Below are positions 12,820 to 23,427 of a stretch of 64,000 nucleotides of DNA, one piece after another. The notes under the pieces were generated by a model. The model was not told the DNA's origin, ran no database searches, and saw nothing but the letters and a program-made list of their open reading frames with translations. The stretch spans positions 1,984,001-2,048,000 of the forward strand of contig OY760142.1 in the NCBI GenBank assembly GCA_963663225.1. Direction: 5' to 3'. The translations under genes and the position numbers were made by a program. This DNA comes from Nitrospirota bacterium (GTDB lineage: Bacteria; Nitrospirota; UBA9217). Positions within the stretch are counted from its first letter, which is position 1. Every line of letters starts with the position of its first letter.

Positions 12820-15456
12820 ATGATAGGCGGTATTCTAAAAAAAGTATTTGGCACGCAGAATGATAGAGAACTGAAACGAATTCAAGCGTACGTTGAGAAG
12901 ATCAATGCTCTCGATTCTGAATTTTCACGTCTGACTGATGCGGACTTGCGGGGCAAGACCGATGAATACAAGAAACGGCTGCAGCAGGGAGAAACGCTCA
13001 CGGATCTTCTTCCCGAAGCATTTGCCGCGGTGCGTGAGGTTTCGAGGCGGACGCTCGGTATGCGCCATTTTGACTCTCAGCTTGTGGGCGGCATTGTGCT
13101 GCATGAAGGCAAAATCGCCGAGATGAAAACCGGTGAAGGCAAGACGCTTGTCGCCACTCTTCCTGTCTACCTGAACAGCCTGACGGGCAAAGGGGTGCAT
13201 GTGGTTACCGTGAATGATTATCTCGCCCGGCGCGATGCACAGTGGATGGGGCCCGTTTACCAGTTCCTCGGCCTCTCCGTGGGGGTGATCGTCCACGGAC
13301 TTGAAGACGAAGAACGCCAGCAGGCCTATGGGTCTGATGTGACCTACGGCACCAACAACGAATTCGGTTTTGATTATCTGCGCGACAATATGAAATTTGA
13401 CCTCAAGGATTATGTCCAGCGCGAATTGAACTTTGCCATTGTCGACGAAGTGGATTCCATCCTGATTGACGAAGCCCGGACCCCGCTCATCATTTCCGGT
13501 CCGGCGGAAGATTCAACCGACAAATATTATAAAATAAACCGCATTATTCCGAGCCTTAAAAAAGATACCGACTACACGATTGAAGAAAAAACCAAGACCG
13601 TGGCGCTGACCGAAGACGGCAATATTAAGGTAGAGCGCATGATCGGTGCGGGGAATCTGTATGATCCGGCAAACGTGGAACTCGTGCACCATGTACACCA
13701 GGCGCTGAAAGCGCACGCGCTGTTTCACCGCGACGTGGATTACGTCGTCAAGGATGACCAGGTCCTGATTGTTGATGAGTTTACCGGCAGACTCATGCCC
13801 GGCAGGCGCTGGAGCGACGGCCTCCATCAGGCCATCGAAGCCAAGGAAAATGTCAAGATCGAGAATGAGAACCAGACATTGGCATCGATTACGTTCCAGA
13901 ATTACTTCCGGTTGTATAACAAGCTTGCTGGAATGACAGGCACTGCGGAGACGGAGTCCGCGGAGTTTGCAAAGATTTACAACCTCGACGTGCTGGTGAT
14001 TCCCACCAACATGCCGATGATTCGGGCGGACAATCCCGACTTTATATACAAGAGCGAGACAGGAAAGTTCAACGCGGCCATCAACGAGATCGAGGAGCGG
14101 CATAAAAACGGCCAGCCCATGCTGGTTGGCACGATCACCATCTCCAAGTCCGAGATACTTTCCGCGATGCTCAAGAAAAAGGGCATCAAACATACGGTGC
14201 TGAATGCCAAATATCATGAGATGGAAGCCGAGATTGTGGCGCAGGCAGGCCGATATGGTGCCGTTACCATTGCGACAAACATGGCGGGCCGCGGAACGGA
14301 CATCATTCTCGGCGGCAATCCCGAAGGGCTTGCGCGCCAAATGCTGAAAGGCAAGGAATATACCGCGGAAGAATGGAACGCAACGCTTTCTTCGCTGAAA
14401 GACCAGTGTGCTGCAGAAAAAGAGAAAGTAAAAGTCGCGGGTGGCCTTCATATTCTGGGTACTGAGCGGCATGAGGCGCGGCGCATCGACAACCAGTTGC
14501 GCGGACGGTCCGGCCGTCAGGGAGACCCCGGGTCATCGCGATTCTACCTTTCTCTTGAAGACGATCTGCTCCGTATCTTCGGGGCCGACCGGATCAAGGG
14601 ACTTATGAGCCGGCTCGGCATGGAGGAAGACGTTCCTATTGAGCATGGCATGGTGTCCCGTACCATTGAAAATAATCAAAAGAAGGTGGAGAACCACAAC
14701 TTCGAGATACGAAAACATATTCTTGAATACGACGACGTGATGAACCAGCAGCGTAAAGTCATCTATGAACAACGGCGCCAGATTCTCGGTGGTGAAGATC
14801 TTAAGGAAGAAGTTCTCGGACTTGCAGAAGACATGCTCGAAGGCATGCTCGGATTCTACTGCCCCGAAGACGCCTACCCGGAGACGTGGGATATCACGGG
14901 CCTGCGGGACGCGCTCGCAGCCAAGTTTTCCTATCGTATGACGGATATAGACCCGCAATCTATGGAGCGCGGCGAATTATACGAAAAACTTTGGGAGGCG
15001 GTCAAACAGAGTTATGACGCCAAAGAGCAGCAGATCGGCACCGAGTTGATGCGGCATTTAGAGAAAGTCTTTATGCTCCAGGCAGTGGATCAGCAGTGGA
15101 AAGACCACCTCCTTGCCATGGACCATTTAAAAGAGGGGATCGGGCTGAGGGGCTATGGCCAGAAAGACCCCCTGATAGAATATAAAAAAGAGGGCTTCGA
15201 GATGTTCGAAGAAATGAAGCTGCGCATCGTGGAATCTACGGTGGAGAACCTCTTCCGCATCAAGGCTGCTGCAAAAGAACAGAGCCAGGAAATCGAACGG
15301 CGCCAGCGGCGTCAGATGGAGAAACTGAGCTTTGTCGGTTCCGGCGACGCAGCCCCGCAACCGGCCCAGCCTGTCCATGCAGGCCAAAAAGTCGGCAGAA
15401 ACGACCCCTGCCCCTGCGGGAGTGGTCTGAAGTACAAAAAGTGCCACGGAAAATGA
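12820..15456 (+). CDS. secA: Preprotein translocase ATPase
   Basis: [41 protein letters not shown] and SEC-C motif [17 protein letters not shown]. Confidence 0.99.
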
Positions 15457-15495
15457 ACTGATAGTAAGATGATCGTTTTATGACATTGACTTTTC

Positions 15496-15529
15496 AATGC
15501 GGTCCCCATGTTCGGAGGCCGCATTTTTT
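15496..15529 (+). terminator. Intrinsic terminator after secA
   Basis: AATGCGGTC...GGCCGCATT stem followed by a T-run. Confidence 0.75.
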
Positions 15530-15868
15530 GTTTGCGGGGCTTTACAGAGCGTCTGGTTTCATTTCTTGGTCTTACTAACCTCCGTAAATCATCATATATT
15601 GTGCGCAGCGGGGAATAAGATAAGGATTCTTTTATGAAAAGGGACCTCTCTGTATTATTCCTATTACAGGTTCCGGCGTTGGCGTTCAGTGGTAACTAAA
15701 ACGTTCGATGTCGCACAGGGTAGACCATTGCCAATCTTTTATGTGTAAAGCCATAAATACTTGTAGATTATAGGATGCCTTTGTTGTATAATTAAATAAC
15801 ATTACGATACGAACTTTTTGGATTGCATCTGATCTGATATCCGATCCGCCTGAGCCTGGGGGTGTGAC

Positions 15869-16051
15869 ATGTTTATACCGCTAGAGCAGTGCCAAATCTA
15901 CAAGGATGGTCAATGGATTACGGTGGCAGCTTCGGACTGCATGTGTTTCACCTGCGATGCTCCGTGTTCTCCTTGTGAAAAAGACTGTCCGGGGCCGACG
16001 AAGGAATGTAAAAAGAAACAAGACGCAGTAAAAAACGGCAGGCTTCCTTGA
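15869..16051 (+). CDS. Small Cys-rich hypothetical protein (8 Cys in 60 aa)
   Basis: GGGGGTG SD, upstream TATAAT and the cluster CMCFTCDAPCSPCEKDC. Confidence 0.55.
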   Translation: MFIPLEQCQIYKDGQWITVAASDCMCFTCDAPCSPCEKDCPGPTKECKKKQDAVKNGRLP

Positions 16052-16210
16052 TTTTATTTACAAACGGAGCTAAAGAAACCGAAGAAAATGCAGCTAAGAT
16101 AACTGCGGAGCTTTTCGCCGACGTTCTTTCAACTTTGGGTACGAATCTCACCTGGACACCGGCATGTGTGCATAGATTTCGACCACCGGTGTCTTATTAT
16201 GGAGGTGACG

Positions 16211-16681
16211 ATGATATCGCCGATCGGACCACCTGCTAGCCTGTTTTCCTACTTTCAGACCGATGCTGTTGCCAGGAACAAGTCAGCTTCCCCCGCAGAT
16301 ACTATGGCTGTTCAGGCCTCCGCGGATTCAGAAAAAACCGCAGCCATAGGCCCGAACGAGTGCAAAACCTGAGCGTCGAGAAAGTACAAGGATCGGTCAA
16401 ATGATCCTTCCGTTTCGTTTCAGACGCCGACGTCGGTAGCCCCTGAACTTGCCGCGAGTGCTGTGCGCGCCCATGAGCAGGAGCATGTTCAGCACAATGC
16501 ATTAAAAGCAGAGAGCGCCGGTATGAAAGCGACCTCAATCGTACAGATACATACCGCCGTATGTCCTGAGTGCGGCAGAATTTATGTGTCTGGGGGGACC
16601 ACTATCACGACCTTTTCACCTGACCAATCCTTCACTCCAACGGACTCTTCCAACGGAATGCTCGTCAATATCCGCGTATGA
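16211..16681 (+). CDS. Candidate selenoprotein, 156 aa, CxxU...HExxH...CxxC (in-frame TGA at 16370-16372)
   Basis: GGAGGT SD before ATG 16211. ORF-track pieces 16166-16372 and 16463-16681 share a frame and join as ECKT-U-ASRKYKDRSNDPSVSFQTPT...AVRAHEQEH...CPECGRIYVSGGTT. A SECIS-like hairpin follows the TGA. Confidence 0.78.
16388..16409 (+). promoter_or_regulatory. Putative bacterial SECIS element
   Basis: AAGGATC-GGTCAAAT-GATCCTT: a 7-bp perfect stem starting 15 nt after the UGA, with a loop starting with GG at +23. Confidence 0.7.
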
Positions 16682-21494: not shown

Positions 21495-22316
21495 TCAAGG
21501 AAGGATCTTGTTGATGTCTTTTTCCGCATAGTTTTCCCGGCGCCACCGGTACGGTAAATCTATGATGGCGCCCGGATTACGTATCTCGTGCAACGCGCGG
21601 AAAGCTTCAGCAAGAATGACGCGATGTTGTGCAGGCTTGAACGGCTCACCGAGCGGATGTCCGAAAGGCCATCTGACAAAAACGGTTCGCGGAGGCTTGA
21701 CTGCTTCGGAATATTTACGGACAATCGAGATGCCTATCGTCGGGATGCCGGCTTTTTCTATCACCCGCTGTATCAGTCCGACGGACTGATTACAAATGCC
21801 TCAGGCGGGAGTCAACAGAACAACATCCACGCTGTCCGCCTTTAGTTTTTGAGCTATTTCAGGTGCGCTCGTCCTTGTCAGAGTCTGGATGTGGCGGCCG
21901 GTGATATGACCCATAAAACCATAGTGAGTGTCTGCTATTCGGCCAATGAGCCCTTCCTGCTCGAATTCTTTCAATCGTTCAAGTGGAAACACGATGTTGA
22001 TGTCTTTGTCGGCATCAGCGTGGTCATAATAATCGTGCGTGATCTTGAGACTGGAAAGGGGTCTCCTTGCATCGAGGGCTCTGTAGGAAGGGTCTCCATC
22101 ATGGTCTGACATATTGAAAGGTTCCTGGTCAATATGCTGTACACCGGACGTCGTTACAATAGCTATTTTTGAACTTTTAAGGCTTTTTATAACGGGAGTC
22201 CAGGGGATATCAAGCGAAGTCAATGGATCGTAAGCGTCTATGAATTTTTTCGCCAGCGATGGGAACCGAGTAATTACTTTTGCGATGAGTTGATTTTTAA
22301 GTCTCGCAAAGTCCAT
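21495..22316 (-). CDS. Glycine/betaine/sarcosine/D-proline reductase selenoprotein B family (PrdB-like), 273 aa, UxxC (in-frame TGA at 21803-21801)
   Basis: GGAGG SD before ATG 22316. Motifs PWTP, AIVTTSGV, GDPSYR, HDYYD...DINIVFP, VDVVLLTPA-U-GICNQSVGLIQRVIEKAGIPT, KPPRT and PFGHPLGEP. The two ORF-track pieces are in frame. Confidence 0.9.
21769..21794 (-). promoter_or_regulatory. Putative bacterial SECIS element
   Basis: On the minus strand: UGA-GGCAUU-UGU-A-AUCAGUCC-GUC-GGACUGAU-ACA, an 8-bp perfect upper stem with the loop G at +19. Confidence 0.78.
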
Positions 22317-22419
22317 GTTTGGACCTCCAATGGAAAAGGTTTTTAAATCCAAAAATTCCACCAAAATGCCGGATGCTGTGCTGGGCCAATGTTTGCTCTC
22401 TGCGCCTGCTCCTGCGAAG

Positions 22420-23427
22420 TTATCTTCGCTCCGACCGTCCGCCTCCGTGCGGACTGCTGCCCTCTCTTCCTCCGCCCGGGAATCCACCTTCACGGCCTCC
22501 GCCGGGAGCCGGAGTAAATGTTTTCCCTTCTCTGCTCATACCGCCAGACGGACCGCCCTGCCTGCTACTTTCAGGAACAGGGGTGAACGTTTTATCTCTG
22601 CCTGTCAATTCACGTTCCCGGAAACCTCGAAAAACTGCATTGCTGCCTCCACGAGCACCGGTGATGATAAAGCGCTTTGACTTCTGCGGTACGCCTATTC
22701 CGCCATACGTTCGTCCATTGAACCTTTTAATCGGATCTATTCTGAAGACCCTGTTTGCGCGACGATCAACGAAGTGGTTTGAAATGATTTCCACCCGCCC
22801 GTGTACATGGACGACTCTGTGAAAATCAACCAGAATAAAATATCCGGGAAACCAGAAATCCCACCACCAGAAAGGATAGGGAATCCACGTATAAAGATAG
22901 AAATAATCCGGCGGCGGAGCGTAGTAGGTTACTATTGGCGGGCCCTGTTCAGCATAGTAGTTATTCACCACGGTAGTTCCTTCAGAATTGTCATAGTGCG
23001 GGCTTGTCTGAGCAGTTTGCCCAGGAGGCGTTCCTTGTTTTACTGCAAGGCTTAGTCCTGTTGTAACTTTCTGGAATCCCCGCAATGCCTCGTCTTTTCC
23101 GATATCCAGCCGATTTGCATCTGCAGCGTCTACAACAGATTGCCTCAACTCTCCGATGATGTCGGGTGTAACCGGGTAATCTGCAATCCATCCGTTTCTG
23201 GGGGCAATGCCTACGTCTGCCAGCCTGTTTTCGGCTTCGGTTTCATTTGCCGCTGTTGGGAGATTAAGCGCTTCAACCAGCTTGAGTGCAAGATCTCCTT
23301 CACGCACCAGGGGTTGGGCTATCGGAGGTTTTATCTCAGCAGGCTGCATCGGCTGGGCATATGTTCCTGCGGGTATTAAACACAAAACAGCAAAAGTTAT
23401 GAGTAAACGTTCAAACGACTTTTTCAT
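22420..23427 (-). CDS. Exported hypothetical protein with a Tyr/Pro/Trp-rich core and a Gly/Arg-rich tail
   Basis: GAGGT SD, signal peptide, PLVREGDLA..L, GIAPRNGWIADYPVTPD, YYAPPPDY and WIPYPFWWW. Confidence 0.75.
   Translation of the reverse strand: MKKSFERLLITFAVLCLIPAGTYAQPMQPAEIKPPIAQPLVREGDLALKLVEALNLPTAANETEAENRLADVGIAPRNGWIADYPVTPDIIGELRQSVVDAADANRLDIGKDEALRGFQKVTTGLSLAVKQGTPPGQTAQTSPHYDNSEGTTVVNNYYAEQGPPIVTYYAPPPDYFYLYTWIPYPFWWWDFWFPGYFILVDFHRVVHVHGRVEIISNHFVDRRANRVFRIDPIKRFNGRTYGGIGVPQKSKRFIITGARGGSNAVFRGFRERELTGRDKTFTPVPESSRQGGPSGGMSREGKTFTPAPGGGREGGFPGGGREGSSPHGGGRSERR

Follow-up and report, generated by a model that had tools for sequence, protein, structure and literature searches.

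The window analysed here is a stretch of 64,000 nucleotides from a Nitrospirota bacterium (assembly GCA_963663225.1, contig OY760142.1, positions 1,984,001 to 2,048,000 of the forward strand), and all positions below are counted from its first letter unless another contig is named. On its plus strand, 16211-16681 forms a single reading frame in which the sole interruption is a TGA codon at 16370-72 and which is closed by its own stop, TGA 16679-81. In the list of open reading frames (ORFs) the region is given as two pieces, 16166-16372 and 16463-16681. A preliminary description of this DNA had taken the two short ORFs for one frame split only by the TGA at 16370-72, with that codon read as selenocysteine (Sec, U). 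Translation through the codon yields 156 residues, and the motifs CKT-U54, VRAHEQEH and CPEC are present where that description had placed them. The evidence presented below makes it very probable that the region is one gene for a 156-residue selenoprotein, with the UGA at 16370-72 specifying Sec, and that the protein belongs to a family tied to the flagellum. The features of the gene are collected in Table 1.

Table 1. Features of the predicted selenoprotein gene and its upstream region (bSECIS, bacterial Sec insertion sequence; AF2, AlphaFold2)
Feature	Position	Strand	Basis or detail
Sigma-28-type promoter remnant (putative), TAAA-N15-GCAGCTAA	16071..16097	+	Alignment of three upstream regions
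Shine-Dalgarno GGAGG, 5 nt upstream of ATG	16201..16205	+	Direct sequence reading
Selenoprotein gene (predicted)	16211..16681	+	156 codons plus TGA stop, Sec at codon 54; translation
Start codon ATG	16211	+	N-terminal MI.P(I/V)(S/G) agrees with homologue starts
First knuckle, C51-K-T-U54	16361..16372	+	C51 invariant, C54 nearly invariant (112-sequence alignment)
In-frame TGA, U54 in C51-x-x-U54	16370..16372	+	Cys column in homologues
bSECIS-like hairpin, core stem 16388-94/16403-09, loop GGUCAAAU 16395-16402	16386..16413	+	Fold; two outer pairs past 2-nt bulge
V85-R-A-H-E-Q-E-H92, HExxH motif in helix 78-102	16463..16486	+	Invariant columns and AF2 helix
Second knuckle, C118-P-E-C121, beta-hairpin tip	16562..16573	+	Invariant columns; AF2 hairpin 105-117/124-137

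The read-through protein gave 860 protein matches at E<=0.01, the best with 62% identity over 99% of the length; the source names of these matches are all 'hypothetical', and no Pfam domain was found among the 120 of the 860 that are listed. A scan of species genomes recovered 554 relatives in the Bacillota, Thermotogota, Spirochaetota, Ignavibacteriota, Thermodesulfobacteriota, Nitrospirota and other groups. In an alignment of 35 sequences, C51, C54, R57, D61, S63, D65, H88, E89, H92, C118, P119 and C121 are invariant, the column of the window TGA being Cys in 34 out of 34 aligned homologues. A larger alignment of 112 rows agrees with the smaller one, H88, E89 and H92 being invariant across all 112 sequences, and the consensus of both alignments agrees with the homologue consensus that the preliminary description had given, including the Cys at this position. 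Conservation flanks the TGA column on both sides. The best-conserved part of the family, residues 55-84 (RKYKDRSNDPSVSFQTPT...), lies between the TGA and 16463 and is outside both of the listed ORFs. Four matches of about 90 residues (P0047, P0050, P0072 and P0078) begin exactly at V/M-SFQ(T/S)PT and are downstream fragments of further TGA-bearing genes.

The TGA recurs at the same column in other genomes. Among 61 related genomes the gene was found in five (G000, G004, G002, G021 and G001). One TGA is present in each of G000, G004 (95% identical), G002 (83%) and G021 (64%, another genus), the last three belonging to the taxonomic family of the host, and the copy in G001 (same genus, 66%, non-syntenic) carries Cys instead of TGA. 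Over 85 genome loci, the codon at column 54 is TGC in 38, TGT in 36 and TGA in eight, three loci being missed by the search pattern; one of these three (L048) proved to have TGA too, which brings the TGA forms to nine of the 85. They include metagenome-assembled genomes labelled Desulfocapsa, Smithella, Nitrospiraceae, Nitrospirota and Myxococcota. Metagenomes were searched with a degenerate DNA pattern in which the conserved residues and the TGA at column 54 were fixed and the hairpin was not forced. This search returned 41 stretches with TGA at column 54, of which 38 reach the HExxH motif, the rest being two broken copies and one ended by the contig edge. In nine of the 41 there is a second in-frame TGA exactly at C121 (CPE-TGA-GRxYVSGG), and conservation persists beyond it.

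The TGA-bearing loci with a complete core number 45. On a maximum-likelihood tree of 112 distinct cores, built quickly and from 86 columns only, they fall in three places or more. The clade that holds the window gene is well supported and has 28 rows (22 single-Sec, two double-Sec and four Cys forms), Sec forms occur in at least two further places, and the well-supported branches force at least three switches between Cys and Sec. The codon is retained at the same column in lineages that are only 45-65% identical. The pairing of TGA with Cys, on which the preliminary description had staked its reading, was found in both directions, with Cys in the aligned homologues (and in the 74 TGC or TGT codons) and with TGA in the genome loci and metagenome stretches. 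The sequences point to a family not described before, in which Sec has several times taken the place of the second Cys, in one knuckle or in both. Among the metagenome contigs, one Sec form (L117) reads CSEC at the second knuckle, Ser replacing a Pro that is otherwise invariant, and in two others (L111 and L116) the frame is lost about 36 codons past the TGA (...AVTRGRC*) and is followed by unrelated sequence; these two are probably disrupted copies or copies with an insertion.

Downstream of the TGA a 7-bp stem is formed by AAGGATC (16388-94) and GATCCTT (16403-09) around the loop GGTCAAAT (16395-16402), to which RNAfold adds a G-U pair and the two outer pairs. The hairpin and its bSECIS geometry, as put forward earlier, were borne out with one correction: the distance of 23 nt given for it belongs to the first G of the loop, which begins 22-23 nt past the TGA, and the stem itself begins 15 nt past it. 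The bSECIS model calls for a loop of 3-9 nt, a stem of 4-16 bp, a G in the first two loop positions, a distance of 16-37 nt from the UGA and a minimum free energy of -7.5 kcal/mol or lower (PMC13188914, Fig. 2 legend). Here the stem has 7-8 bp, the loop 6-8 nt starting with GG or GU and the spacing is 22-23 nt, all within the constraints of the model, and the 30-nt hairpin segment folds at -9.3 kcal/mol. A 66-nt segment folds at -20.5 kcal/mol (z -2.29, equalled by seven of 200 shuffles), a modest value when taken alone.

The comparison of Sec and Cys forms is more telling. The hairpin lies at the same place in all eight genome Sec forms, in which 7, 7, 7, 7, 7, 5, 6 and 7 of the seven positions are paired, whereas among the 74 Cys forms none has all seven paired and the commonest number is three (0 in one form, 1 in four, 2 in 13, 3 in 28, 4 in 20, 5 in seven and 6 in one). 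The mean folding energy at this site is -9.1 kcal/mol for the Sec forms and -5.3 kcal/mol for the Cys forms, and Arg after D61 (CGG, the source of the loop GG) is found in eight of eight Sec forms against one of 74 Cys forms. Compensatory changes of the stem were also found among Sec forms, in L019 (CAGGATC/GATCCTG) and L023 (GTGGATC/GATCCAT). Several observations count against a recoding element of this kind. The covariation that was to be looked for in TGA-bearing homologues does exist and is weak overall: in 25 distinct sequences three of the seven pairs are invariant and only three cells are changed on both sides. Coding for D-x-S-x-D-P in itself favours part of the stem. Another group of Sec forms (11 distinct sequences, DVS/DGS type) has a shifted ACCAGG/CCUGGU stem with a 14-nt loop, which fits the bSECIS model poorly. 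Past the second TGA of the double-Sec forms, a GUCUC/GAGAC stem occurs in five of eight distinct forms through a Thr-to-Glu change; an alternative stem at this place is largely forced by the V-S-G-G-T codons, all five positions being paired in 25 of 102 Cys forms, and the energy of the segment after the second TGA does not separate Sec121 from Cys121 forms (-16.1 vs -16.1 kcal/mol). Because the covariation is weak, the argument from the hairpin rests on the contrast between the Sec and the Cys forms.

The genome of the host is equipped for the insertion of Sec. selA and selB are adjacent, a tRNA-SeC with the anticodon tca lies at C1:3214210-3214308, and selD has an in-frame TGA at its own Sec position, so that selA, selB, selC and selD, the set for which a check had been advised, are all present. 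Beside selD (522565-523479) there is a second Rfam match to tRNA-Sec (G000:C1:522308-522451, minus strand, 144 nt, 48.9 bits), at which ARAGORN calls no tRNA. About 5 kb from the gene, the window holds another selenoprotein gene, likewise anticipated by the preliminary description: a GrdB-like gene at 21495-22493 (minus strand) with TGA at 21801-21803, which is split by gene callers. Its read-through product contains ...LLTPAUGICNQS..., and the portion upstream of the TGA matches positions 213-345 of the 347 of the Pfam GRDB model. In the mechanism proposed for the window gene, the UGA at 16370-72 would be decoded as Sec by SelB and the tRNA-Sec, directed by the downstream hairpin, and we infer from the sequences that selenium is inserted at U54.

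Three other explanations of the interrupted frame were weighed. That a TGC or TGT was turned into TGA by faulty assembly or sequencing is scarcely conceivable, since contigs from three other studies (X5, X6 and X18) span the codon with the TGA unchanged in each, and TGA stands at the same column in three other genomes and in the 41 metagenome contigs. One of the independent contigs is identical to the window sequence, one of 190 nt has seven differences, none of them at the TGA, and a 20.7-kb metagenome contig of a 97%-alike strain has 23 differences over 701 positions with zero within 16329-16603. As independent contigs keep the TGA, the codon did not arise by misassembly or through a recent lesion. 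The second explanation, in which the UGA is read as Trp, Cys or Gly through an altered code or near-cognate decoding, draws on the fact that the analysis of sequences cannot distinguish which residue enters. It is nevertheless extremely improbable, as the gene's own stop is TGA, the genome has the full Sec machinery with selD and the GrdB-like gene carrying TGA at known Sec positions, and Cys is the sole partner of the TGA in the alignments, with a SECIS-type hairpin after the codon in the Sec forms but not in the Cys forms.

The third explanation is that the TGA is a real stop, the region being either a pseudogene or two small genes, one for a 53-residue peptide and one an ORF from GTG 16463. 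The ORF list does give two ORFs, and gene callers have made C-terminal fragments of about 90 residues in relatives, which agrees with such a division. Against it, the best-conserved residues of the family, 55-84, would be encoded by neither ORF, the TGA recurs at the exact column in the divergent lineages noted above, and the strain with 23 differences is unchanged over 16329-16603. The truly broken copies, L111 and L116, also look different from the window gene. A real stop is therefore very improbable. Judged by all the computational criteria now in use, the region is a selenoprotein gene, and this reading is retained below.

In the structure proposed, the protein would consist of a disordered N-terminal region (residues 1-49), a conserved core and a short conserved C-terminal tail. 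The core would comprise the C51xxU54 knuckle, the RKYxDxSxDPxVSFQTPT segment, a long HExxH helix and a long beta hairpin tipped by C118PxC121. Sec would replace the second Cys of the first knuckle, and in some relatives that of the second knuckle as well. An AF2 model built from the 112-row alignment has a pLDDT (predicted local distance difference test) above 90 over residues 50-140, with residues 1-49 disordered, and predicts a short helix at the first knuckle (52-55), a 25-residue HExxH helix and a long beta hairpin that carries CPEC at the tip. The four Cys of the family are retained or lost together. By inference, the two knuckles may form one four-ligand site of the zinc-ribbon or rubredoxin type, either metal-binding or redox-cycling, which could work as a zinc ribbon, as a rubredoxin-like iron site or as a redox switch. 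The HExxH helix probably provides a metal site of its own.

Tests for a flagellar connection were undertaken because a SprA-related protein of C. jejuni, CJM1_0395, is reported in a proteomics paper (PMC5223770) to be found in supernatants only with an intact flagellum. The host of the window gene has FlhA, flagellins, FliA and FlgM. Its genome contains nine perfect TAAA-N14-16-GCCGATAA sites, of the sigma-28 type, against two for the reversed pattern, and some of these directly precede flagellin genes and flgM. In the closest relatives, G004 and G002 (loci L015 and L016), a perfect TAAA-N15-GCCGATAA lies about 115 nt upstream of the start codon of the gene. Over the family, the -10 element GCCGATA at 100-400 nt before the CxxC was found on the sense strand of 20 of 107 distinct upstream regions, on the antisense strand of three of 107, and in 64 of 2384 background regions (binomial p ~1e-11). 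Among the Sec forms it is present in 16 of 33, against 0 on the antisense strand. Many of these 16 also have a TAAAGTT-like -35 at the right spacing. When a -35-like element was required in addition, the counts were 16 vs 0.

The second kind of evidence is co-occurrence with FlhA, which is present in five of five carriers of the gene from five lineages. In 201 Oscillospiraceae genomes FlhA was found in 18 of 21 carriers as compared with 24 of 180 non-carriers, and among the 61 relatives of the host in five of five carriers as compared with 15 of 56 non-carriers. Within the host's taxonomic family the gene occurs in five of eight FlhA-positive genomes and in none of the 29 FlhA-negative ones, and two congeners (G003 and G005) are without FlhA and without the gene. 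From the sigma-28 promoters of the Sec forms together with the near-confinement to genomes with the export gate, it follows that the gene is most likely a late flagellar-regulon gene, as far as sequences can indicate. What the protein would do at the flagellum, and whether it would be exported, are matters of conjecture.

A more specific proposal is tentative and, taken in all its parts, rather unlikely: with this protein the bacterial flagellar system would have its first selenoprotein, a small one made late under FliA control that leaves through the flagellar type III export gate like CJM1_0395. The disordered N-terminus would guide export, and a metal or redox centre (Cys2Sec2 or Cys3Sec) would lie beside the HExxH site, its exposed ligands having been switched between sulphur and selenium several times in anaerobes.

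The flagellar connection has to be set against the possibility that the protein is a real selenoprotein with a general role in redox or metal homeostasis, the link to the flagellum being phylogenetic hitch-hiking. This possibility is unlikely, and it has several observations on its side. The promoter of the window copy keeps the -35 element and the spacing, but its -10 element (16090-16097) is GCAGCTAA, with two substitutions relative to GCCGATAA; FliA control of this copy is uncertain because of these substitutions, and the copy may be expressed differently or weakly. In the Cys forms, which are mostly of the Bacillota, GCCGATA is not enriched (four of 74 vs three), and SigD-type motifs upstream of the Cys forms showed no enrichment either. 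The gene neighbourhood over 119 loci has no conserved partner, the commonest neighbour cluster occurring in 10 of the 119; the genes most often found nearby (a histidine kinase/DegV fusion, MatE, Tex, DUF975, DUF4349 and BioY) have no common theme, and flagellar genes do not form a neighbourhood around the gene. Three of the 21 gene-positive Oscillospiraceae genomes are without a match to FlhA, and the Fisher p-values overstate the association, since related genomes are not independent. Finally, most CxxU selenoproteins are redox proteins, according to section 7 of the review PMC13188914. Against hitch-hiking, the co-occurrence is seen in two distant lineages and also within one genus, where the two congeners lack both, and the -10 element in the Sec-form upstream regions (16 vs 0 on the other strand) is often accompanied by a -35 element. 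The association of the family with the flagellum is new and has two independent lines of evidence behind it, which are weaker for this copy on account of its degenerate promoter.

Two side observations concern these loci. One of the three Oscillospiraceae exceptions (G312:C95:4205-4561), in whose genome no FlhA was found, has an in-frame TAA in its copy of the family, and the gene may be decaying there in a lineage that has no flagella. In the window, a 755-nt gap (15457-16210) containing only short ORFs separates secA (12820-15456) from the selenoprotein gene; the gap is also conserved in G004 and G002.

These results have a bearing on annotation and on the study of selenium. The family is a predicted new selenoprotein family that annotation currently splits into two 'hypothetical' fragments, and annotators can recognise such genes by the Cys/TGA column together with the hairpin. 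More than 800 members were previously without a functional lead, and the sigma-28 promoters and the co-occurrence with FlhA supply one. The use of selenium is thereby connected with motility genes, a connection not found in the literature search: full-text queries linking selenoprotein with SprA-related, or selenoprotein or selenocysteine with flagellar and zinc ribbon, returned nothing relevant. As Sec would sit in a putative four-Cys ribbon-type site, a place usually regarded as structural, the family is also a natural system for asking what effect selenium has.

Among the nearest known proteins are the zinc-ribbon and rubredoxin-type Cys4 domains (for example Rpr2 and FYDLN_acid), which like the window family have two CxxC knuckles, the second being a CPxCG at the tip of a beta hairpin. 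Sub-threshold Pfam matches to these split zinc-ribbon families were obtained, to Rpr2 for 81 of the 112 members and to FYDLN_acid for 73 of 112, all under the curated cut-offs. The window family differs from these domains in a 60-residue insert with the HExxH helix between the knuckles, and Sec as a ligand is unusual for a site of this type. With the zincins the family shares an invariant H, E and H in a helix; it differs from them in having no zincin fold detectable by Foldseek, no identifiable helix for a third ligand and a far smaller domain. A search of the PDB with the AF2 model by Foldseek gave no match at E<=0.001, and the best hit of a profile search of the PDB sequences had an E-value of 1.7. 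A zincin metalloprotease was rejected, with no PDB match at that threshold and no zincin among the best matches, as were HU/IHF-like Foldseek matches, which were weak (template modelling score, TM, <=0.23).

A resemblance to the SprA-related proteins (PF12118, 'putative metalloprotease CJM1_0395 family') had also been noted in the preliminary description. The two families have in the same order a short N-terminal motif, a low-complexity linker, a long (V)RAHExxH helix and a beta hairpin, with a motif at the hairpin tip followed by G(R/K)xY(V/I)xGG in both. An hhalign comparison with seven PF12118 proteins of other Nitrospirota aligned VRAHExxH through GRxYVSGG over 52 columns (E 1.8e-4) with a probability of only 48%, and the profile-to-sequence (HMMER) scores between the families are at most 16 bits. 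Pfam gives no PF12118 match for the window protein, nor for any of the 112 members at E<=0.1, and a search of the host genome turned up no member of PF12118. The AF2 model of a PF12118 member (pLDDT 86) has the HExxH helix and the hairpin as in the window model, with GPDG at the tip and two extra helices; Foldseek matched this model to no PDB entry at E<=0.001 and to nothing zincin-like. PF12118 thus differs in having GPDG instead of CPxC and no first knuckle, and its two C-terminal helices with ALAPADPSxQD are absent from the window protein, which ends about 20 residues past the hairpin. The likeness is accordingly weakly supported, a distant relationship to PF12118 being plausible and unproven from these comparisons, and the label 'metalloprotease' is unsupported. 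Genes of PF12118 occur in nine of 151 genomes of the phylum, all nine FlhA-positive, as against 90 of 151 FlhA-positive overall. A sigma-28 motif was found upstream of only two of the seven PF12118 genes, with ACCGATAA, and was not used as support. In the Nitrospirota samples the window family is found only in the taxonomic family f1, and PF12118 only in f11, f13, f16 and f18, a separation that would be consistent with one common role for both.

With respect to known selenoproteins, a 2026 review tabulates 119 families or subfamilies of prokaryotic selenoproteins and gives an InterPro-type identifier for each (PMC13188914, Table 1). Scans of the read-through protein with Pfam-A and NCBIfam 20.0 (June 2026) gave no match beyond noise, with no listed selenoprotein family at E<=1; scans with PADLOC and PHROGs gave nothing above noise, and no selenoprotein family was present among the 25 of 42 families shown for the 112 members. 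As neither Pfam nor NCBIfam matches the protein, it is not one of the selenoprotein families defined in these databases. Within the reach of these identifiers, none of the 119 entries of the compendium could be recognised as this family, the comparison being made by Pfam and NCBIfam models, with entries that have only cd or PTHR identifiers outside it. Together with the TGA/Cys pairing, this upholds the earlier view of the gene as a Sec-for-Cys member of a family that had not been described as containing selenoproteins. In its general features the gene resembles the bacterial selenoproteins of the review (PMC13188914): a UGA aligned with Cys, a CxxU motif, a bSECIS-type hairpin and a host with selABCD. 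Some members of the window family would have two Sec residues, as is the case in a few of the listed families (PMC13188914). The nearest in kind are the 'FmdB family putative regulatory protein' (UxxU, two Sec) and the 'dual CXXC motif small protein', which too have Sec motifs of the CxxC type, but are unrelated in sequence to the family of the window gene.

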